Positions 2,234 to 10,063 of a DNA stretch of 10,110 bases are shown here, piece after piece. Position 1 is the first letter of the stretch, and every line of letters starts with the position of its first letter. The DNA is taken from the NCBI GenBank assembly GCA_048882325.1, contig JBHLRS010000007.1, positions 113,895-124,004 of the forward strand, given 5' to 3'. This DNA comes from Candidatus Thorarchaeota archaeon. GTDB taxonomy: Archaea; Asgardarchaeota; Thorarchaeia; Thorarchaeales; Thorarchaeaceae. Both the position numbers and the translations under genes were made by a program. Below the pieces are notes generated by a model, which saw only the letters and a program-made list of their open reading frames with translations, was not told the origin of the DNA and searched no databases.

Positions 2234-2473
2234 TTACTTTACACGTCTGATGAACCAAACCAATTTATCGCCTTCCTCAACGAGTTCAATGATCTCATTC
2301 CCAGTTCTATTGGACCAAGATGGGAAATCTTTCTTTGTTCCTATGTCAGTGGCGATAACCTTCAGGATCTCACCAACTTGAATTTCTTGGATCTCTTTCT
2401 TTGTCTTTAGGATAGGCATTGGGCATCGGAGCCCACTTGCGTCAAATACTCTTGCTACTTGGTGCTCGGTCAT
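2234..2473 (-). CDS. tusA: TusA-like sulfur-carrier protein (SirA/YedF/YeeD family) with a CPxP active-site motif.
   Basis: The 79-aa product aligns motif by motif with E. coli TusA as I recall it. The segment ...FDASGLRCPMPIL... matches the TusA segment LDALGLRCPEPVM. The segment ...GEILKVIATDIGTKKDFPSW... matches [20 protein letters not shown]. The size, about 80 aa, is typical. Confidence 0.85.
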   Translation of the reverse strand: MTEHQVARVFDASGLRCPMPILKTKKEIQEIQVGEILKVIATDIGTKKDFPSWSNRTGNEIIELVEEGDKLVWFIRRVK

Positions 2474-2652: not shown

Positions 2653-3051
2653 ATGGCCTTGTTCCAACTAATCTTGTTCGTCCTCTTCTCACTAAACCTA
2701 AGCGTGATGTTCTCGGGCTTATTGTTGGCTAGGAGGATGGGCTTCTATTTGATGCCGCAGGTCATGATGCTCATGCTTGGCATGTTTGTTGGCATTGGTG
2801 TACTACTAGTAGGACTCTTCTTGCCAACTTTCGCTATAGCTGGAGTCGATCTGCTCTTCATACTACTAATCGTGGACCTTGTACTGATACTTTTGGCGGC
2901 TCTGATGCAGTTCCTTCAGGTGTTGCCAATACTCATGAAGACTATGCAGGGCGGTCCATTCCATAGCTCACACATCACCAACCTCTTGGTGACCCTGTTC
3001 TTGCTTATTGGATTGGTGCTCTACTACGTTGACTTGGTTGCACTACCATAG
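2653..3051 (+). CDS. Hypothetical small integral membrane protein, about 132 aa, with 4 predicted TM helices and no cysteines.
   Basis: The ORF is open from 2527, but the first 42 codons run through the A/T-rich promoter-like region. An ATG at 2653 with an upstream AGGTGA is the more plausible start. There are four hydrophobic segments. A VDL motif recurs in helices 2/3/4 (GVDLLF, IVDLVL, YYVDLV). The gene ends 13 nt before the DsrE-like gene, which suggests an operon. Confidence 0.5.
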   Translation: MALFQLILFVLFSLNLSVMFSGLLLARRMGFYLMPQVMMLMLGMFVGIGVLLVGLFLPTFAIAGVDLLFILLIVDLVLILLAALMQFLQVLPILMKTMQGGPFHSSHITNLLVTLFLLIGLVLYYVDLVALP

Positions 3052-3064
3052 GAGATGAAATGAT

Positions 3065-3430
3065 ATGGCAAACAAACTTTACATAATCGGGCAGTGGGGC
3101 CCTGAAGCTGCTGAACGGTGCTACGGCCCATTCGTCACTGGAACCACTGCACAGGCTCAGGATGTCGAAGCAAACATCTTCCTTATGATGGATGCTTGCA
3201 TGCTAATGAAGAAAGGTATGGCTGAGAAGGTGAAAGCCCCAGGTTTTCCACCACTCCCTGACCTGATTGATGCTTTCCTAGAAGCAGGTGGTAAAATCCA
3301 AGTCTGTTCAAACTCCGTTGAGTTTAGGGGCATTAGTCAGGAAGACTTGAGAGATCCCAGAATCGAGATTGCTGGTGCAGCCACCATGATCGATGATGCT
3401 CTCAATCATGACACAGTAATGACTTTCTAG
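3065..3430 (+). CDS. DsrE/YchN-like (DsrE/DsrF/TusD superfamily) sulfur-relay protein, 121 aa.
   Basis: GGAG at 3051-3054 sits 10 nt before the ATG. The product aligns with E. coli YchN as I recall it. FLMMDAC matches FLMSDAV, KIQVCSNSVEFRGIS matches VKLCKTCTDGRGIS, and the C-terminal ...VMTF matches ...VLTF. The conserved Cys is in the 'VCS' position. Confidence 0.75.
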   Translation: MANKLYIIGQWGPEAAERCYGPFVTGTTAQAQDVEANIFLMMDACMLMKKGMAEKVKAPGFPPLPDLIDAFLEAGGKIQVCSNSVEFRGISQEDLRDPRIEIAGAATMIDDALNHDTVMTF

Positions 3431-3486: not shown

Positions 3487-5271
3487 CTACACAAAATCAG
3501 GATAACAATTAGTCATGAGGAGATTCAAGACCGAACTCCTGATTGCACCTTCGGAGATGAAACCAGTCAGTTCACGCTCACAGATCTTGATGTAGGGCAA
3601 CATAGGAAGTTCTTCAGTATTAACATCGACATCTGGATCATCGACATTGATTGTTTCAACCATGCTCCGAGGGACACCCATTGAGTCCAGTACAGCAGTT
3701 AAGATTTCCATAGCAGGATCACAGAAAACACAATGATTAGACTTGAAAAAGGTGATGCAAGTGTTACGCCCACAATGGAGTTCGGGAGCTTCTATCCACA
3801 GAGGTAGTAGCAAAATAAAACGAGCACCTTGAGAATGGACTCCATTTACTCGGTCTTCCACACGAATCTTGCCCCCGATGTTCTTTACAATCCTGTCAAC
3901 AAGTGTGAGACCAAGACCTCGGCCAACAATCTGCTCATCGGGGCTACCTGTTCTTCTGAAAATGAACTCCTTGGCACTATCAGGCACTCCCGGTCCCTGG
4001 TCAATGAACTCAATTCGAAGCATCTTCACTTCATCAGCAACCTCCGCTTTGACTTCCACCACAACATTGTCATGCTCGTCAAATGTCATTGAGTTGTGAC
4101 TTATGTTGAAAAACACCTGCTCCAGATACTGGTGCCCCGCTACGTCAAATTTCCCTTTCTCGATATTCGTAGTCAAACTAAGAGTCTTCCAAGGGAAGTC
4201 TGCTTTGACTCGTTCAAGGGAGGACTGAAAGTAATCATAGATGTCAACCTTGGTTCTTGTTGGTGGGTCATTAGCCAGTCTGAAGAGTGACCTTAGATTC
4301 GCCACCATCCTTGCAGCACGTCTGACATTCCAGCTCGACTCGTGCAATAAGGGGCGATACTGTTCGGGGATGTCTTCTGAGTTCTGCAAAAGACCTGTTG
4401 AGAACAACAGACTCTGATTCACGTTATTGAGATCATGAGTCATAACTTCCAGATACAGGTTTGCGCGATCACGTTCAGTCTGCTCCCTTGCTTCCGCATT
4501 CTTTCGCCGATCAATATCTAGAGCCATCAAAGCGATTGTTGAGGATTGGTCAGGATACTCAAGTAGGTTTGCTGTGACACTTACCCAGTTCGAGCGTCCG
4601 TCTGCAGTCTTCATCTGCATCTCAAAGTCTTCTACACTCTTTCCGTTTGCTGCTTCAGAAATCATTTGACCTACGATTTCTTTAGCAGTACCGTTGGGCA
4701 GAAAGGATGAGAAGTTCCTCCGAAGTAAATCCTCCTCTTTGTATCCTAAAAGACGAGTTGCTGCTTTGTTCACTTGCAAAACATTACCCATTAGACTCAG
4801 TGAAAAGTATGCGATTGGTGAAGAATCGAAAAGTGCACGGTATCTACTCTCAGAAGCGTCAATTGCCGCCTCAAGCTCAACTTGTCTAGTAACGTTTCTC
4901 ACAATGCCCATAATGGCTGGTTTTCGCGAGAGAGCGAAGTCTGAGGTACTGATCTCAACGTGGATCACATCTCCATTCTTCTTTAGAAACCGTGCCCTAA
5001 ATGCTGGTCGACCACTCTGTCCCCAGTTGAAGCCCTCTTGGACCTCAGTGAACTGATGCGCAGTCGTAGGCTCGAGAAGATCTGTTATGGGTTTTCCTTC
5101 AAGACTAGCGAAGTCGTATTCCATCATTTCAAGAAATGCTGGATTCGCCATGATGATTCTATCATCCTGTAAGATGATAATTCCATCATTCGCCAACATC
5201 ATCATGCCAAAGTACTCATCTTCGACATTGGTGGCGTTCTTGTTTTGTTGACCCTGCAACTCGTATTTCAC
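3487..5271 (-). CDS. Sensor histidine kinase. It has two PAS domains, a HisKA-like DHp with an H-box at H279, and a HATPase_c domain, fused in frame to a C-terminal thioredoxin-fold domain carrying C-x4-C-x9-C-x2-C.
   Basis: PAS-like blocks span about residues 25-127 and 138-257. The H-box is EVMTHDLNNVNQS, with the His codon at 4435-4437. The N-box is FFNISHNS, G1 is IDQGPGV and G2 is GRGLGLTLV. The HATPase domain ends at ...ARFILLLPL. The chain then runs directly into WIEAPELHCGRNTCITFFKSNHCVFCDPAMEIL...VETINVDDPDV...LPMLPYIKICERELTGFISEGAIRSSVLNLL. That tail follows the beta-alpha-beta/CxxC layout of small archaeal thioredoxin/glutaredoxin-like proteins (compare the Methanocaldococcus Mj0307-type sequence ...FTSPMCPHCPAA...INV..NP...VPTIVING...FIG...). 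The first codon is GTG at 5269-5271, immediately after an in-frame TAG. An alternative ATG start is the MMM triplet at 5197-5205. Confidence 0.8.
   Translation of the reverse strand: MKYELQGQQNKNATNVEDEYFGMMMLANDGIIILQDDRIIMANPAFLEMMEYDFASLEGKPITDLLEPTTAHQFTEVQEGFNWGQSGRPAFRARFLKKNGDVIHVEISTSDFALSRKPAIMGIVRNVTRQVELEAAIDASESRYRALFDSSPIAYFSLSLMGNVLQVNKAATRLLGYKEEDLLRRNFSSFLPNGTAKEIVGQMISEAANGKSVEDFEMQMKTADGRSNWVSVTANLLEYPDQSSTIALMALDIDRRKNAEAREQTERDRANLYLEVMTHDLNNVNQSLLFSTGLLQNSEDIPEQYRPLLHESSWNVRRAARMVANLRSLFRLANDPPTRTKVDIYDYFQSSLERVKADFPWKTLSLTTNIEKGKFDVAGHQYLEQVFFNISHNSMTFDEHDNVVVEVKAEVADEVKMLRIEFIDQGPGVPDSAKEFIFRRTGSPDEQIVGRGLGLTLVDRIVKNIGGKIRVEDRVNGVHSQGARFILLLPLWIEAPELHCGRNTCITFFKSNHCVFCDPAMEILTAVLDSMGVPRSMVETINVDDPDVDVNTEELPMLPYIKICERELTGFISEGAIRSSVLNLLMTNCYPDFV
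3490..3798 (-). other. C-terminal Trx-like domain of the histidine kinase (residues about 492-594), containing CVFC plus an upstream HCGRNTC pair.
   Basis: Domain boundaries come from counting codons from the start at 5271. The W492 codon maps to 3796-3798. There is no internal start, RBS or stop between the HATPase domain and this domain, so it is a genuine in-frame fusion in the sequence as given. Confidence 0.6.
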
Positions 5272-5388
5272 CTAGACGTGTCTGAAGTCACTTCATCTGC
5301 TCTTGCGCCATGGATGACTCCTAAATTATCCACATATAGGTTGCTTGTGTAAATCGATTCAGTAGGAAATATTCCTTAACAGAATTTC

Positions 5389-5438
5389 TTTTATAGTGTA
5401 CAAGAAAACATTTTAACATTTGAACAAACGTTGAAATG
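5389..5438 (+). promoter_or_regulatory. Candidate promoter and operator for the arsR-like/ATPase operon. It has a TATA-like TTTTATAG at 5389-5396 and an imperfect 10-2-10 inverted repeat at 5417-5438 that overlaps the first ATG.
   Basis: TTTTATAG lies about 40 nt upstream of the ATG cluster at 5436-5453. The inverted repeat is CATTTgAACa-aa-cGTTgAAATG, with 8/10 positions complementary. A direct repeat AACATTT is at 5407 and 5416. TGAAC...GTTCA-like cores are typical of ArsR/SmtB operators. Confidence 0.3.
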
Positions 5439-5777
5439 ATGTGTGGCATGATGGCAGCAGTTAAACGCAATGCTAAGACAAAAATTGAATTCAAAGAGAA
5501 CGAACTGGAAGATGTACTCGATATCTTCCGAGCGCTATCAGATCATTCAAGAGTTAGGATAATATCTGCACTCACAAGTCAAGAAGAACTCTGTGTTTCA
5601 GATATAGCAGATTTGTTGGATATGCCAATCAGCCGTGTGAGCCATCATCTGAGTACGTTGAAGATGTTAGGCTTTGTGAGAGCAAAGCAGGATGGAAAGC
5701 AAGTTTTCTACAGTATAGAAGATGACTGTATCACCGATATCATGAAGAGGGCATTGGATCATGTCGCAGGAAACTGA
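5436..5777 (+). CDS. ArsR/SmtB-family metalloregulatory transcriptional repressor.
   Basis: The winged-HTH block is ELCVSDIADLLDMPISRVSHHLSTLKMLGFV, with the ELCV(S/C)D alpha3 signature and the recognition helix SHHLxxL. The C-terminal ...YSIEDDCITDIMKRALDH aligns with the CzrA/SmtB alpha5 metal site (YSLGDEHIRQIMMIALAH). Several in-frame ATGs at 5436, 5439, 5448 and 5451 leave the exact start ambiguous. The 3' end overlaps the ATPase start by 17 nt. Confidence 0.85.
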   Translation: MMCGMMAAVKRNAKTKIEFKENELEDVLDIFRALSDHSRVRIISALTSQEELCVSDIADLLDMPISRVSHHLSTLKMLGFVRAKQDGKQVFYSIEDDCITDIMKRALDHVAGN

Positions 5778-7674
5778 ACATACGTGTGCCACCTGCGTCG
5801 CTTCTGCTGGTTCAGAAACACGCAAACCGAAGCGCTATAAATACAGAATGGCAGTCTTATCGGCATCTATGCTTGTCCTAGGGCTCCTTCTACATTTTAC
5901 TGGTTTTAATATTGCAATCATTTATGCAGTCTTTCTCCTTTCAATGCTTTCCGCTGGACAATTCATCCTACCTCGTGGAGCAAGAGGACTGGCTCAACTT
6001 AGACTTGATATGCATTTCCTAATGTCAGTGGCTTCAATTGGAGCATTCATCATTGGAGCACCAGCCGAAGGTGCCGCAGTCATGTTTCTCTTCTTCATTT
6101 CAATGCTTTTAGAGGAACGAGCAGAGGATCAGGTGAAGAAAGAGATCCATGAACTTGTTGAATTAGAACCTCCTTCAGCCACCATTAAGATGAGCAAAGG
6201 TGCTGAAGCGTTAATCCCAACATCAGAGGTTAGAGTTGGAGACACACTCATTATTCGTCCAGGTACAAGGATTGGACTTGACGGAATAGTTGTCTGTGGT
6301 CAGAGCTATGTAAATCAAGCACCGATTACCGGAGAGTCTCTTCCAGTTTCAAAGTCAGAAGGAGACAAAGTCTACGCAGGGACCATCAATCAGGAGGGAT
6401 ATCTAGAAGTTGAGGTGACCTCTGAGGCACACCATACAGTTCTCTCAAGGATAGTCGAGCTCGTTGAGGAAGCCAAAAACAAGAAGGCACCGACTGAGCA
6501 ATTAATTTCAAGGTTCTCTAGAAGATATACACCTGTAATGGTAACACTGACCATCCTCTTGGGTGTGGGTTCATTCCTTCTAGGTGCATCCATAACCGAA
6601 GCAACTTATCGAGCATTAACTCTCCTAGTGATTAGTTGCCCATGCGCATTTGTTGTTTCAATACCAGTAAGCATGGTTTCCTCCATTGCGGGATCTGCTA
6701 GAGATGGGGTTCTCGTAAAAGGTGCCATCCACATAGAACAGACAAGTAAAACGAAATCCGTAGCATTTGACAAAACTGGAACGCTTACTGAAGGTGTTCT
6801 TTCTGTAAAAGATGTCTGTCTACACAACGACCACTCACGAGACGCTGTGTTAACAGCTGCAGCTACACTTGAGCAGAAATCGGAACACCCCATTGCAAAG
6901 GCCTTAGTTGCTGCGACTGAAGCGGAGGCCTATCAACTTCCCGATGCTGAGGGTTTCTCCGCAATACCAGGAAGAGGGGTTGGAGGACAGATAGGTGACA
7001 CAAAATACTTCGTTGGTAATCGAAGACTATTGACAGAGCAAAACATCACATTGGAATCTATAGCTGATCACTCCTGTGGGGTCGGCACCATGGTTTATGT
7101 TGCCCAAGAGCGCGAGCACCTCGGAACTATTGTCTTGGCAGACTCTCTCAGAAATGGTGCAATTGAGGCTGTTGAAGAGTTGAAGCGAATGGGAATAGAC
7201 ACCGTGATGCTTACTGGTGACAGTGAATCTGTAGCAATGGAGATTGCTGAAGAAGTTGGGATCGACCGATACATAGCAGAACTACTTCCTGATGAGAAGG
7301 TTAGAGCCATAGAAGAACTCTCAGAGAGAGGTTCTTCAATAATGGTGGGAGACGGAATAAATGACGCACCTGCTCTTGCCGCAGCTGATGTTGGTATAGC
7401 AATGGGAGCAGTGTCCTCTGATGCAGCAATAGAAACAGCGGATATTGCCCTTATGCAACAAGATCTTAGAAAGATTCCCTCGCTTATCAAAAAAGCTAAG
7501 AAGACAATGACAATTGTCCGTCAAAACATTGCAATTTCGATTTCAATTAAACTTCTAGTTGGAATTCTCGCAGCTTTTGGACTAGTGAATCTTTGGATTG
7601 CGATTGGTGTTGGTGATATGGGTTTGACATTTGCAGTTATTGCGAACGCATTACGACTTGTTCGGAAGCAGTAA
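5761..7674 (+). CDS. P1B-type heavy-metal-translocating P-type ATPase, probably Zn2+/Cd2+/Pb2+ (P1B-2-like). It lacks a canonical N-terminal HMA domain.
   Basis: CPC is in a TM helix (LLVISCPCAFVVSIP, codons at 6637-6645). The phosphorylation motif is FDKTGTLT, with the Asp codon at 6769-6771. SEHPIAKAL is the HP motif. The hinge motifs are MLTGDS and GDGINDAPAL. The last helices are ...RQNIAISISIKLLV... and ...IAIGVGDMGLTFAVIANALRLV. The conserved Lys and Asp there are characteristic of ZntA/CadA-type pumps rather than the CopA-type MxxSS. The N-terminus has only a short HTCATC CxxC. Confidence 0.85.
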   Translation: MSQETEHTCATCVASAGSETRKPKRYKYRMAVLSASMLVLGLLLHFTGFNIAIIYAVFLLSMLSAGQFILPRGARGLAQLRLDMHFLMSVASIGAFIIGAPAEGAAVMFLFFISMLLEERAEDQVKKEIHELVELEPPSATIKMSKGAEALIPTSEVRVGDTLIIRPGTRIGLDGIVVCGQSYVNQAPITGESLPVSKSEGDKVYAGTINQEGYLEVEVTSEAHHTVLSRIVELVEEAKNKKAPTEQLISRFSRRYTPVMVTLTILLGVGSFLLGASITEATYRALTLLVISCPCAFVVSIPVSMVSSIAGSARDGVLVKGAIHIEQTSKTKSVAFDKTGTLTEGVLSVKDVCLHNDHSRDAVLTAAATLEQKSEHPIAKALVAATEAEAYQLPDAEGFSAIPGRGVGGQIGDTKYFVGNRRLLTEQNITLESIADHSCGVGTMVYVAQEREHLGTIVLADSLRNGAIEAVEELKRMGIDTVMLTGDSESVAMEIAEEVGIDRYIAELLPDEKVRAIEELSERGSSIMVGDGINDAPALAAADVGIAMGAVSSDAAIETADIALMQQDLRKIPSLIKKAKKTMTIVRQNIAISISIKLLVGILAAFGLVNLWIAIGVGDMGLTFAVIANALRLVRKQ

Positions 7675-7680
7675 GAGAAA

Positions 7681-9258
7681 CTACTTGTAAGTATTAAGAG
7701 CACGAACCGAAGCTGCCAAGAAGAAGTAGACTATTGATAGTGTGAAGACAGGGAGTATAATAATCACTAGAATGCTATCTGCAAAAATAGCGATTAAAAA
7801 CACCATAATTCCTCCCAAACCTAGGTTTATGATTGGGAAGGAGAATGCTAGGGGAACTGGAAGTGTCTTTGGATCATTTGTCATCACAGGTATGTAAGCA
7901 CCTACTGCACTCCCTGTGGATGCGAATAGGATTGACAACGGAGCAGCAAGTGTGATGACTGCGAGATAGCCTTCAATATGAATAAAGTATACCAAGAACC
8001 CGCAAGCAGGAATCACAGTAATGACCACTTCAAAGAGACTCAAAAGATATTTGGAAAGAACTATGTCTCTCGAGCGAAAAGGCGATGCCTTGAGTAGGTA
8101 TACATTGTCACGTTCATCAACAAAACTCAGCATCGAAGTGACACTAGCCATTTGTATGAAAAGTATCATCATCAGAATGAATGCTGGAACAAGTGCAAAT
8201 GCCAGACCTATAGGAACGTTAATTGCTGGAAACCAGATTGGTCTTACAAAGTTTAGGTAGAACACGAAGATAGTTCCAAAAACTGCATAGACATATTTCC
8301 ATATCTGCATGGGCGACCTTAATCTACTCCAGAAATCCTTCATCATAATCCATAACATCGGGTCATTAAATCGAGATTGAGAAAAGTCAACCTCACCTCT
8401 GATAACTCTACTGAATCGGCCCTCGGTCTGTACTCTTCCTTTGCTCGCGGAGTAGAGCTCATAGTATTCGTAGTTAGTCAAATTAGCTGTGAGTAGTAAG
8501 CTGATGATGAAACCAATCATAATAAAGACCATGCCATAAAATGGCGGAATCTCTTGAGAGAATAGACCAGTGAATTCAGTCACAAAGAGAATAAACGCGT
8601 TAGACGGTGCAATATAGGTAGCTGCCATATTTGATAGAACCCACGGATGAGCTGGAAGGATTGTCAAGACTCCTAATATGACCACAATAAGGTGACGTAC
8701 TCGACGCTGAGACTTCTTTGATATCCATAACCGAACATAGGAACTTATTGCCCCAAGGAGATAGTTAGTTTCAAAGAAAATGATGACTACAATCAATAAA
8801 GAAACAGCTGCGAAGAATAGAAGACTTGCTGAAATTATAAGGGGAAAGATAGAGAGGATGCCTAAAATCAGGAAGGATATCTTCCTGATGATCCGTCTTG
8901 AGTATCGACTTAGAAAGATCTGATGTGGTTTGACGGGAGCAGACATCATCAAACTCTCATCTACATCACTCAATACAGCTGCAGGACCAAGTCCGAAATA
9001 GCCACTCACCACCGATGATGCACTCAAGACAGCTGCAGCTGCAAAGACCATGTTGGCATCAAGAGTATCTTCAAGCAGTGTGCTAAAGTTGTAAAGCAGA
9101 GGTGCGAAGGTTACGAAGCTCGTTATCACAGAACTGACAAAGAAGATTCCACAGAATGATACCCCATAGAATAGGAGCATTGAAGGAGTAATAATAGCTG
9201 ATTTGAATTGATTATACAACATGCGTATCTCATTTTTCATGAGTTTGTATGTTGTCAA
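7681..9258 (-). CDS. Polytopic membrane permease (525 aa, about 10-12 TM). It is the probable ABC-2-type transporter permease partner of the upstream ATPase.
   Basis: The product is highly hydrophobic, with many predicted TM helices across two halves. The start at 9258 is 13 nt downstream of the ABC ATPase stop on the same strand. I recognised no specific family signature by eye. Confidence 0.65.
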   Translation of the reverse strand: MTTYKLMKNEIRMLYNQFKSAIITPSMLLFYGVSFCGIFFVSSVITSFVTFAPLLYNFSTLLEDTLDANMVFAAAAVLSASSVVSGYFGLGPAAVLSDVDESLMMSAPVKPHQIFLSRYSRRIIRKISFLILGILSIFPLIISASLLFFAAVSLLIVVIIFFETNYLLGAISSYVRLWISKKSQRRVRHLIVVILGVLTILPAHPWVLSNMAATYIAPSNAFILFVTEFTGLFSQEIPPFYGMVFIMIGFIISLLLTANLTNYEYYELYSASKGRVQTEGRFSRVIRGEVDFSQSRFNDPMLWIMMKDFWSRLRSPMQIWKYVYAVFGTIFVFYLNFVRPIWFPAINVPIGLAFALVPAFILMMILFIQMASVTSMLSFVDERDNVYLLKASPFRSRDIVLSKYLLSLFEVVITVIPACGFLVYFIHIEGYLAVITLAAPLSILFASTGSAVGAYIPVMTNDPKTLPVPLAFSFPIINLGLGGIMVFLIAIFADSILVIIILPVFTLSIVYFFLAASVRALNTYK

Positions 9259-9271
9259 TCCAGTACACCCC

Positions 9272-10063
9272 CTACTCTGGAATCCCGCCAGTCAGGTGCA
9301 GAAATATCTCTTCAAGGTTAGAAGCACTAGGGAATAGACGCTTCATCTCATCATAAGTCCCTTTTCCAACTACGTCACCCTCATGCATAATCACAAATCT
9401 GTCACAGAGATCAGCCGCAACCTCCAGAATGTGAGTAGATATCAGGATGGCTGAACCCTGGCTTCTTAACTTACGGAGATGCTTCTTAAGGTTCCATGCA
9501 CCGCGTGGGTCAAGTCCGTATATGGGCTCATCAAGCGCCAGAATGTAAGGAGGTTCTCTCGTGAATATACCAATTAGTAACGCCCGTTGCAGATTACCTT
9601 TGGACAAGGTTCCGATGTAACTATCAATGAACTCATCGAAGTGAAACAATTCTACGAATTCTCTCATCCTAATAAGAGCAATGTCTTGAGGAACACGATA
9701 AATACGGGAAGTGAACATAACATACTCCCGTGCCGTGAGACTCGGGTAACAAGTTGGCTTCTCTGGTATGTACCCGATACGTTCCTTTGCAGCAATTGGC
9801 TCTTTCTTGATGTTGAACCCATCCACCTCGATATGCCCACTTGTGGCTTGGATTATCCCTGTAAGCATCCTAAGGGTCGTTGTCTTTCCAGCGCCGTTTG
9901 GCCCTACAAGACCTACAATTTCACCAGGTTCTACTTTCAGGTCTAGCTTACGAACTGCAATTTTCTTGCCAAACCGTTTGGAAACTTGTCTGAGTTGAAT
10001 AGCAGGAGATTTTAACTTGACAGGAATTTCAGATTCTTTCTCTTTCTTCTCCAACTCTTTCAT
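9272..10063 (-). CDS. ABC transporter ATP-binding protein (ABC-2/DrrA-like subfamily).
   Basis: Walker A is GPNGAGKTT. The Q-loop region is ERIGYIPE. The signature-like motif is LSKGNLQRALL. Walker B is ILALDEP and the H-loop is ISTHIL. The frame stays open upstream of the ATG at 10063 all the way to the window edge, so the true start may lie beyond 10110. Confidence 0.85.
   Translation of the reverse strand: MKELEKKEKESEIPVKLKSPAIQLRQVSKRFGKKIAVRKLDLKVEPGEIVGLVGPNGAGKTTTLRMLTGIIQATSGHIEVDGFNIKKEPIAAKERIGYIPEKPTCYPSLTAREYVMFTSRIYRVPQDIALIRMREFVELFHFDEFIDSYIGTLSKGNLQRALLIGIFTREPPYILALDEPIYGLDPRGAWNLKKHLRKLRSQGSAILISTHILEVAADLCDRFVIMHEGDVVGKGTYDEMKRLFPSASNLEEIFLHLTGGIPE

Follow-up and report, generated by a model that had tools for sequence, protein, structure and literature searches.

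The gene on the minus strand at nt 3487-5271 of the window, by which we mean the whole 10,110-nt stretch of DNA analyzed, encodes a soluble PAS-PAS-DHp-CA histidine kinase that continues into a C-terminal thioredoxin-fold domain with six cysteines (594 aa plus stop, based on the ORF list, domain matches and homologues). The tail has a putative regulatory role, probably making the kinase responsive to thiol, redox or metal status. An earlier note, made from the sequence alone, had described the architecture as non-standard, and a kinase with a C-terminal six-cysteine thioredoxin-fold domain was indeed not found in the family libraries or literature that we searched; the matching passages of a 2018 census of archaeal two-component systems likewise make no mention of it.

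The kinase is encoded by a single ORF that begins with GTG and comprises 594 codons; the NCBI homologues begin four codons later, giving 590 aa, and the full-length homologues are 49-100% identical to this protein. No transmembrane segment was found, the maximal Kyte-Doolittle value over 19 residues being 1.23. PAS domain 1 (aa 28-128, nt 4888-5190; this and all other parts of the gene are on the minus strand) matches Pfam PAS_9 and is the least conserved domain of the kinase (conservation 0.66). It is missing from family variants of 453-496 aa, and P0130, P0131, P0144 and P0145 are variants with one PAS domain. PAS domain 2 (aa 143-256, nt 4504-4845; conservation 0.78) matches Pfam PAS/PAS_4, with PAS at 143-243, as well as TIGR00229, and adjoins the DHp helix. 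The DHp helical hairpin (aa 253-334, nt 4270-4515) is modeled by AlphaFold2 as helices 253-296 and 303-334, with the phospho-acceptor His279 (nt 4435-4437) located mid-helix in the H-box THDLNN and invariant among 115 homologues. Pfam HisKA (PF00512) gave no match to this region at E <= 1; like that of many other archaeal kinases, this DHp has diverged, and the functional residues are unaffected by the missing match. For the catalytic ATP-binding (CA, HATPase_c) domain (aa 340-491, nt 3799-4254), Pfam HATPase_c (PF02518) scored 57.5 bits at aa 383-491 versus a gathering score of 26.4, and the N box (H392/N393), G1 box (D424-x-G-x-G428), F box (F438) and G2 box (G450-G454) are all invariant in the 115 homologues. 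Together with the invariant H279, the Pfam placements confirm the PAS-PAS-DHp(H279)-HATPase layout given in the earlier note. The assignment as a cytoplasmic two-component sensor histidine kinase (class I, HisKA-like DHp plus HATPase_c) with intact catalytic boxes is well supported, and autokinase activity is predicted.

The fusion of kinase and tail is real and not an assembly artefact. As previously noted, the reading frame passes uninterrupted from one to the other: no stop is present across the junction (nt ~3757-3810), the other two frames are closed, and the sole start-like codon is a TTG at L487. At the junction, a conserved linker extends the thioredoxin domain N-terminally (aa 492-505, nt 3757-3798); it has invariant or near-invariant columns and holds W492, E494, L498, C500-G501 and C505, the two cysteines forming a C-x4-C at nt 3757-3774; the pLDDT of the linker is ~62 in the full-length AlphaFold2 model. 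A frameshift or misassembly that fused two distinct genes, one for a kinase and one for a small thioredoxin, might be suspected from the short T runs in the junction DNA, from short tail-only or truncated gene calls (P0001, P0003, P0004, P0005, P0059, P0065 and P0121) and from the existence of stand-alone relatives of the tail. However, the same continuous ORF recurs in >110 protein clusters, drawn from independent assemblies from NCBI, JGI, ENA and Logan, and in all 44 of the species-level genome loci found, the linker is itself conserved (P490, W492, E494, L498), and identity between the tail and its stand-alone relatives is no more than ~36%. The truncated P0059, P0065 and P0121 end out of frame at differing positions, as is typical of sequencing errors. 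We consider the artefact to be effectively refuted. The fused family comes almost entirely from metagenome-assembled genomes (MAGs) labelled Thorarchaeota (Asgard archaea). Two further candidates were rejected. A selenocysteine variant, with TGA in place of a Cys codon in the truncated homologues, does not apply to P0059, P0065 and P0121, which instead run out of frame, each at another position. An internal start that would give a free tail was dismissed for lack of conservation: many homologues have Met at residue 488, but others, this protein among them, have Leu, Phe, Val or Glu.

Structure prediction and profile comparison give good support for the last ~95 residues being a true small thioredoxin-fold domain that belongs to the Thioredoxin_3 / MJ0307 / glutaredoxin-like type. 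The AlphaFold2 model of the tail (pLDDT 76.6) shows the order beta-alpha-beta-beta-beta-alpha, and the best 50 Foldseek matches to this model were almost all Trx, NrdH or Mrx1 proteins, with a probability of 1.0 for the top matches and 0.87-1.0 over the best 50; classical thioredoxins scored higher than SasA or KaiB. The core (aa 506-594, nt 3490-3756) consists of beta1 (506-510), alpha1 (517-530), beta2 (538-542), beta3 (560-563), beta4 (566-569) and alpha3 (574-586). The CVFC that the earlier note placed at the beta1-alpha1 junction (C514/C517, nt 3721-3732) lies between these two predicted elements, and a cis-Pro (P559, nt 3595-3597) is present as well; the thioredoxin-fold assignment made from the letters was thus borne out by the AlphaFold2 model, Foldseek and hhalign. 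The CxxC and cis-Pro align with those of 6mos, 1fo5 and the protein P0201, and we infer the cis conformation of the proline. The Pfam profile search suggested in the earlier note fell short of the thresholds. A search with the tail profile uncovered homology to P0201, a Thioredoxin_3 protein. None of the Pfam or NCBIfam thioredoxin or glutaredoxin models exceeded its threshold on the tail (Glutaredoxin 14.6 vs 22.9, Glrx-like 14.5 vs 26 and TIGR00411 12.6 vs 92.75), no named Pfam or NCBIfam family matched it, and neither Pfam KaiB nor Response_reg gave a match. A single-sequence search with the tail returned just eight near-identical fragments. With the tail profile searched against 1.84 billion proteins, P0201 was found at E 3.8e-4; this protein passes Pfam Thioredoxin_3 (PF13192; 37.3 vs a cut-off of 24.8), and hhalign of the tail profile with it gave 97% probability and an E-value of 8.8e-11. 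A profile search of PDB sequences yielded four weak matches, three of which are thioredoxins, 6mos and 1fo5 among them.

The tail contains six cysteines, C500, C505, C514, C517, C564 (nt 3580-3582) and C589 (nt 3505-3507), and these are the only cysteines of the protein. The earlier note had counted four, overlooking C564 and C589, and the spacing of the first four is C-x4-C-x8-C-x2-C rather than C-x4-C-x9-C-x2-C. In its HCGRNTC element, the Cys pair is conserved whereas H499 is mostly Pro in homologues. The chance of all six cysteines falling within the last 95 residues is about 1.7e-5. Each is invariant or 99% conserved among the 115 homologues, down to 49% identity, with C514/C517 and P559 invariant; outside the tail, family members have 0-4 cysteines, none of them conserved. 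The conservation of the tail is 0.78 compared to 0.79 for the ATPase domain and, on the basis of these alignments, the tail and the fusion are under purifying selection. We also observed that the tail is constant across the family while the number of PAS domains varies from one to two, a pattern as compatible with a docking function or one on the transmitter side as with a sensory one.

The six-cysteine pattern also occurs in stand-alone proteins of 100-130 aa, which fall into ~45 clusters. All of the named stand-alone clusters are from Asgard MAGs (Thorarchaeota, with one labelled Lokiarchaeota). Among representative clusters, the full pattern was seen in 31 stand-alone, 11 fused and two intermediate-length (171-299 aa) forms. 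The relatives that miss outer cysteines miss most or all of them and resemble ordinary Thioredoxin_3 proteins; by their distribution, the six cysteines behave as a unit. No common partner gene was found beside the stand-alone paralogues in the genomic contexts examined, where the neighbors include a Holliday-junction resolvase (by synteny), a flavodoxin, a Cys/Met-metabolism enzyme and a RimK-like ligase. A Rosetta-stone link was considered and rejected, the kinase 2 kb from paralogue P0207 being only 26% identical to the kinase described here.

The genes around the kinase are rich in thiol and metal functions. A DsrE-like sulfur-carrier gene with the active-site motif VCSNS (nt 3065-3430, plus strand; Pfam DsrE, 55.6 bits) is convergent with the kinase gene across a 56-nt gap and is found downstream of it in 28 of the 37 evaluable species-level loci. 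It is preceded by a small membrane protein gene on the same strand (nt 2656-3051; start set by 131-aa homologues in loci L001 and L006) with a weak DUF5400 match (Pfam E 0.0022, below the cut-off). As these two genes are only 14 nt apart, they are probably in one operon. Next comes a TusA-type sulfurtransferase with a CPMP motif (nt 2234-2473, minus strand; Pfam TusA, 77.1 bits), which is present in 22 of 31 evaluable loci, so that the order is HK(-), DsrE-like(+), DUF5400 membrane protein(+), TusA(-). The direct adjacency to TusA and DsrE-like genes described in the earlier note therefore applies to the DsrE-like gene, while two genes separate TusA from the kinase. On the other side, an ArsR/SmtB-family metalloregulator (nt 5436-5777, plus strand; NCBIfam HTH_metalloreg, 87.3 bits vs a cut-off of 55) is divergent from the kinase gene, with a 164-nt intergenic region, and overlaps by 17 nt a P1B-2 (Zn/Cd/Pb-type) heavy-metal P-type ATPase gene (nt 5761-7674, plus strand). 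The ATPase scored 487.8 bits with TIGR01512 (ATPase-IB2_Cd; cut-off 313.5) and under the cut-off for the copper subfamily, and its translation holds the motifs CPC, N-x7-K and D-x-G-x7-N, a set we take to be that of P1B-2 ATPases for Zn/Cd/Pb-type metals. The arsR gene, as a pair with the ATPase, is upstream of the kinase in 33 of 41 evaluable loci.

Because both flanking genes are on the opposite strand, there is no operon with the kinase, and a noisy alignment of the arsR-kinase intergenic regions revealed no more than a candidate promoter element for the kinase and a candidate ArsR operator. The arsR/ATPase side and the DsrE/TusA side have each been lost independently in some lineages. The sulfur-relay link drawn in the earlier note thus comes down to adjacency on opposite strands, with the arsR/ATPase pair retained at least as often (33/41 vs 28/37); since both sets are retained, the context gives persulfide sensing no advantage over the sensing of metals or of the general thiol-redox state. 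In the window ORFs that we scanned, no receiver domain turned up, in agreement with the earlier description of the kinase as an orphan, but a REC gene is located 5.2-5.9 kb upstream in 14 of the 26 related loci with enough flank, a position that is beyond the end of the window here. No tRNA or Rfam family was detected in the window.

With slightly less than even confidence, we suggest that the tail acts as an allosteric switch for tuning the kinase, based on thiols or on a metal. The CxxC (C514/C517) and the cis-Pro P559 would form a canonical redox site at one pole of the domain. C500 and C505 in the N-extension, C564 at the end of beta3 and C589 after the last helix are predicted to come together at the opposite pole, a closeness deduced solely from fold topology and secondary-structure positions; this pole would also be the point of tethering to the ATPase domain. 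These four outer cysteines probably make a putative Zn(Cys)4 or Fe-S site that would staple together the linker, the beta3-beta4 hairpin and the C-terminus. Oxidation, persulfidation or metal loss could then alter the shape of the domain or its packing on the CA domain, and the changed domain would tune ATP-dependent autophosphorylation of H279. The PAS domains would provide a second input, with the phosphoryl group presumably passed to a receiver encoded elsewhere. As no cysteine is conserved in the kinase core, any such effect must be allosteric or fall on another protein, and an internal disulfide relay cannot be the route. Redox switches of the Zn-thiolate kind have precedents in Hsp33, RsrA and Trx2 (PMC3184428). 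A broader proposal, which we regard as somewhat unlikely, is that Thorarchaeota evolved a six-cysteine thioredoxin family, with a CxxC and a distal four-Cys metal or Fe-S site, of which one copy was fused as a transmitter-side redox switch. The stand-alone paralogues would then be possible redox partners, with a thiol-exchange relay feeding the phosphorelay, and thiol, persulfide or metal status would be sensed after the ATPase domain and not by an N-terminal sensor.

Two other readings of the tail were weighed against the allosteric switch. The tail might be a non-sensory module, either a docking or scaffold domain comparable to the KaiB-like one in SasA, or a kinase-controlled oxidoreductase output, which recruits a partner, possibly a stand-alone six-cysteine paralogue or a substrate. 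Its location where a receiver stands in hybrid kinases, its constancy while the PAS number varies and the many stand-alone paralogue clusters are all consistent with such a role. Yet the invariant CxxC, cis-Pro and four additional cysteines point to chemistry over docking alone, the better scores of classical thioredoxins and the missing Pfam KaiB match argue against the SasA parallel, and next to the paralogues neither a conserved partner gene nor, in the case of P0207, a kinase closely similar to this one was found; we consider this reading unlikely. Still less probable, in our estimation, is that the tail is a sensor of thiophilic metals, binding Zn(II), Cd(II) or similar as the signal, with the kinase working alongside the arsR and Zn/Cd P1B-ATPase efflux pair. 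This pair is the most often retained neighbor, persists in lineages without DsrE and TusA (L033, L037, L039 and L040) and includes an ATPase that passes the cadmium-family model and carries P1B-2 motifs, and six invariant thiolates would be a good ligand set. Against this, the pair is missing from L046 and L052, which keep DsrE and TusA, and from the paralogue group L047-L051, and the whole ~12-gene block is syntenic such that adjacency may reflect only slow rearrangement. Moreover, the ArsR repressor already supplies metal sensing for the efflux operon, its candidate operator lies directly against the start of arsR, ~150 nt away from the kinase gene, with no sign of shared control, and the invariant cis-Pro beside the CxxC is a hallmark of a thiol-disulfide rather than a metal site.

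Histidine kinases almost always take in signals N-terminal to the DHp, and a conserved redox-type domain after the ATPase domain would represent a different wiring of input or control. The protein offers a testable handle on signaling in Asgard archaea, a field with little or no experimental study, and the analysis delineates a branch of the thioredoxin superfamily that has six cysteines, as yet no name, and both fused and stand-alone forms. Recombinant protein would suffice for measuring its redox chemistry and its metal or cluster content, so that no culture of the organism is needed; until activity is demonstrated, the practical impact stays modest.

Among known systems, hybrid histidine kinases similarly have an extra globular domain joined by a short linker directly to the end of the HATPase domain, but the tail here has a thioredoxin fold instead of a (beta-alpha)5 receiver and is without the phospho-acceptor Asp pocket. 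SasA, the cyanobacterial clock-output histidine kinase, has an N-terminal KaiB-like thioredoxin-fold domain that binds KaiC and is not known to carry a CxxC, and the non-redox thioredoxin folds of SasA-N and KaiB are not known to have either the CxxC or the cis-Pro. In contrast, the domain described here is C-terminal, after the ATPase domain, and has a full redox site plus four more cysteines. The redox-sensing kinases ArcB, RegB/PrrB, NreB, AirS and Methanosarcina MsmS/RdmS have autokinase activities controlled by their own thiol, disulfide or Fe-S state. To our knowledge, the reactive cysteines of these kinases are in the N-terminal PAS/GAF or DHp region and none has a C-terminal thioredoxin-fold domain. 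Zinc thioredoxin 2 (E. coli TrxC; D. radiodurans, 7d6l; R. capsulatus, 2ppt) has a distinct zinc finger at its N-terminus with two CxxC motifs, whereas the four outer cysteines of the tail come from a single C-x4-C in the N-extension, the beta3-beta4 turn and the C-terminal end, with metal binding being predicted. In thioredoxin-like [2Fe-2S] ferredoxins, the four cysteines that bind the cluster are spaced C-x10-12-C-x29-34-C-x3-C. With the Thioredoxin_3 / MJ0307 type (PF13192; TIGR00411; PDB 1fo5, aligned over positions 18-94), the tail shares the minimal fold without a long alpha2, the CxxC starting alpha1, the cis-Pro before beta3 and the conserved Gly after beta4, and differs in its four extra invariant cysteines, its C-V-F-C active site and its fusion to a kinase.

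The 594-aa histidine kinase ORF (3487..5271, minus strand) opens with GTG, and NCBI-annotated homologues start four codons downstream of this codon. Pfam assigned it a PAS_9 domain (aa 28-128), a PAS domain (aa 143-243) and a HATPase_c domain (aa 383-491; 57.5 bits, gathering score 26.4), and NCBIfam was consistent with this assignment. When 115 full-length homologues were aligned with MAFFT, H279 in the H-box THDLNN, N box residues H392/N393, the G1 residues D424-x-G-x-G428, F438 and G2 (G450-G454) were all invariant. These domains and residues bear out the PAS-PAS-DHp(H279)-HATPase kinase described in an earlier note, and, given the invariance of its catalytic motifs, the core looks competent. 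No transmembrane segment was detected in the protein (maximum Kyte-Doolittle average over 19 residues, 1.23). Family members have either two PAS domains (PAS-PAS-HK-tail, ~590 aa) or one (PAS-HK-tail, 453-496 aa), and at least two genomes in a one-genome-per-species scan carry two copies.

The C-terminal ~95 residues (aa ~492-594), the tail, continue the kinase in one frame as the note had claimed: no stop interrupts the junction with the ATPase domain, the other two frames are closed there, and the sole start-like codon is a TTG at L487. The note had also raised the possibility of a frameshift, by which misassembly would have joined a kinase to a separate thioredoxin. A pattern scan with the tail alignment across 185,579 species, one genome each, effectively refutes such an artefact: it returned 44 loci, all in Thorarchaeota-labelled or unclassified archaeal MAGs, and tail and kinase core share one ORF at all 44. 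Conservation extends to the linker (P490, W492, E494 and L498 in the 115-homologue alignment, where mean column conservation is 0.78 for the tail and 0.79 for the ATPase domain). Searching with the full-length kinase gave 254 proteins at E <= 1e-20, the best 120 of which, a few truncated fragments aside, range from 570 to 640 aa in length, with 95-100% query coverage and 49-100% identity; where these 120 carry a source label, almost all are 'Candidatus Thorarchaeota' MAGs. The few homologues labelled Sifarchaeia, Lokiarchaeota or Promethearchaeota have synteny identical to that of the Thorarchaeota-labelled ones. The few short homologues reflect sporadic frameshifts at differing positions; none has TGA replacing a Cys codon, and there is therefore no sign of a selenocysteine variant. 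Two loci have the kinase split into overlapping ORFs (L046:6455-8339, 407+227 aa; L053:1739-3350, 238+312 aa), which may be pseudogenes or assembly frameshift errors.

The earlier assignment of the tail to the thioredoxin fold held at the level of profile and structure, although not in single-sequence HMM searches, where all scores were below threshold (Glutaredoxin 14.6 bits, Glrx-like 14.5, MJ0307-type thioredoxin model 12.6). A profile of 35 tails compared with PDB sequences gave four weak matches, three of them thioredoxins (6mos, 1fo5, 2lst), and both thioredoxins with a printed alignment, 6mos and 1fo5, match the tail at the CxxC and at the Pro preceding beta3. AlphaFold2 predicted beta1-alpha1-beta2-beta3-beta4-alpha3 both for the tail only (pLDDT 76.6) and in the full-length protein (pLDDT 80.6). 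At the weak end of a profile search of 1.84 billion representatives we found bona fide Thioredoxin_3 proteins, including P0201 (E 3.8e-4), which is above the PF13192 threshold and which hhalign matched to the tail profile with 97% probability (E 8.8e-11). These independent lines of evidence identify a genuine thioredoxin fold. The tail has the fold, motif and profile homology of the superfamily and scores below the curated cut-offs of thioredoxin models in both Pfam and NCBIfam. As the note had proposed, the CxxC (C514/C517) sits at the beta1-alpha1 junction of the predicted structure; it is invariant, as is P559 directly ahead of beta3, and in the models the two make up a canonical thioredoxin active-site geometry with the redox motif intact.

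The tail contains six cysteines (C500, C505, C514, C517, C564 and C589) rather than the four counted earlier, the first four are spaced C-x4-C-x8-C-x2-C rather than C-x4-C-x9-C-x2-C, and the His of the proposed 'HCGRNTC' element varies among homologues. The six are conserved throughout the kinase homologues (invariant or 99%, n=115), which have 0-4 cysteines outside the tail, none conserved; this protein has none there at all (chance probability of such clustering ~1.7e-5). In thioredoxin folds, beta3 adjoins beta1 in antiparallel orientation and the last helix points away from the active site. With C514 anchored as the first active-site Cys and P559 as the cis-Pro, C505, at the start of beta1, and C564, at the end of beta3, would lie on adjacent strands at the sheet end distant from the active site. 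C589 would share this pole because the last helix also heads away from the active site, as would C500 because it is five residues ahead of C505. By fold topology, then, the four outer cysteines probably converge at the pole that receives the linker from the ATPase domain. As the protein is cytoplasmic and its source presumably an anaerobe, disulfides are less plausible here than a putative Zn(Cys)4 or Fe-S site.

The tail belongs to an unnamed six-cysteine thioredoxin subfamily. Its profile matched only 77 proteins at E <= 1e-3, comprising ~20 kinase fusions and ~45 stand-alone proteins, 97-131 aa long, that share their pattern, CG(R/K)xxC ... CxxC ... P ... IC ... C(F/Y). Named stand-alone proteins all come from Thorarchaeota MAGs bar one labelled Lokiarchaeota, and none of the stand-alone six-cysteine proteins passes a Pfam threshold; one, P0207, aligns with the tail without gaps over 99 residues at 36% identity. 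Mapped to the profile, all six cysteines are present in 31 stand-alone, 11 fused and two intermediate-length (171-299 aa) representatives, while relatives without the outer cysteines miss most or all of them and resemble ordinary Thioredoxin_3 proteins. Some stand-alone proteins (P0147, P0151, P0163, P0165, P0167 and P0184) end in a CFC and have further CxC or CxCxC motifs in the loop between beta2 and beta3; their 8-10 cysteines per ~110 residues suggest additional metal or cluster sites. P0150 (156 aa) has a 4Fe-4S ferredoxin motif at its N-terminus (Pfam Fer4, 35 bits) joined to a tail-related domain that keeps the CxxC and is missing the four outer cysteines. In one stand-alone orthologous group (L010-L012, L057, L058), an Endonuc_Holl Holliday-junction resolvase gene on the opposite strand adjoins the stand-alone gene or is one gene away, which is probably synteny only.

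The kinase shares no operon with its neighbours, as both flanking genes, dsrE-like (3065-3430, +; VCSNS cysteine) and arsR (5436-5777, +), lie on the opposite strand. Beyond them are genes for a DUF5400-like membrane protein (2656-3051, +) and TusA (2234-2473, -; CPMP motif) on one side and for a P1B ATPase (5761-7674, +), a membrane permease (7681-9258, -) and an ABC ATPase (9272-10063, -) on the other. Across the 44 loci, counting evaluable ones, ArsR is divergent and upstream of the kinase in 33/41, the P1B ATPase is retained in 33/39, DsrE-like lies downstream in 28/37 and TusA is retained in 22/31. Both sides are present at 23 loci, ArsR only at five, DsrE-like only at three and neither at three. 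Among deep branches from which one side has been lost, some keep the ArsR-ATPase pair (L033, L037, L039, L040) and others DsrE-like plus TusA (L046, L052, L053); the ancestral arrangement probably had both. Because a ~12-gene block around the kinase is syntenic across the class, adjacency is weak evidence for functional coupling.

The ATPase, encoded by a gene with a 17-nt overlap with arsR, scores above the cut-off of the cadmium-family P1B-2 model and, with its N-terminal CATC, membrane CPC, N-x7-K and D-x-G-x7-N motifs, is predicted to belong to the Zn/Cd/Pb (P1B-2) type. ArsR has Cys53 (ELCVSD) and what we take to be a possible alpha5-type site (D96/C98/H109). An imperfect inverted repeat at 5420-5435 (TTGAAC-AAAC-GTTGAA), perfect in the orthologous region of L023 (TTGAAC-GTTT-GTTCAA), adjoins the arsR start codon; we liken it to the TGAA...TTCA operators of ArsR/SmtB repressors, and this candidate operator probably serves the arsR-ATPase operon and not the kinase. 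The element CACATATAGGTTGCTTGTGTAAATC (5334-5358), which precedes the kinase start by ~65-85 nt, may be the TATA/BRE promoter of the kinase. Close orthologues conserve it between arsR and the kinase, and orthologues whose kinase proteins are ~60% identical have a related TAGATAATACTT..TTGT motif. Several lineages have a Bac_luciferase gene (luciferase-like oxidoreductase, 163.8 bits) directly downstream of the kinase, between it and DsrE-like or replacing the DsrE/TusA block (L042:8380-9324, L053:3397-4344, L047:8383-9339, L004:9811-10779). At the window's other end, a 196-aa NfeD-like ORF (20-610, +) with a His/Asp-rich start (MDHDVDHDMDHDVPDD...HSHELDVEHDIPH) precedes an SPFH/flotillin-like gene (821-2152, +), an order resembling that of NfeD-SPFH pairs; no NfeD model matched the ORF, and many related loci have a homologue.

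The window is too short to judge the kinase an orphan, because in 14/26 related loci with enough flank a gene whose ~200-aa product has a receiver domain and a HisKA-like helix (H-box 'SHDI'), without HATPase, lies 5.2-5.9 kb upstream (L006:1553-2155, minus strand; equivalent position in L013, L017, L018, L024-L026, L029-L032, L034, L035, L054, L055). Its expected place here is beyond position ~10,500; it is a candidate phosphotransfer partner.

We infer that the tail would act as a thiol- or metal-based switch, its state being relayed by allostery to the neighbouring ATPase domain, or acting on another protein. Zn-thiolate switches of like logic are documented in Hsp33, RsrA and Trx2 (PMC3184428). 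An internal disulfide relay from tail to core is excluded for this protein, as the core has no cysteine. The persulfide signalling proposed from the adjacent sulfur genes gains no specific support from context, given the syntenic block and the ArsR-ATPase pair, which is retained at least as often; a rival input, a thiophilic metal sensed in connection with that pair, fares no differently, since gene context does not discriminate among persulfide, metal and general thiol-redox inputs. Alternatively, the tail could be a docking or output module, as is SasA's KaiB-like domain, a reading somewhat favoured by the constancy of the tail while PAS number varies.

Matched passages of an archaeal two-component census (PMC5847659) contain no kinase-thioredoxin fusion of this kind, and other literature searches found none; further kinase-thioredoxin fusions may exist elsewhere. 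Kinase and tail are a lineage-specific domain combination, not found in the literature searched; the architecture is solid and unusual, and its function would be that of the switch we infer. The closest relatives of the tail in sequence are Thioredoxin_3 / MJ0307-type small redoxins, and it fails the defining features of both Trx2 and KaiB. In chemistry its nearest analogue is Zn-Trx2, and in architecture it is SasA, whose thioredoxin fold is N-terminal and without a CxxC.
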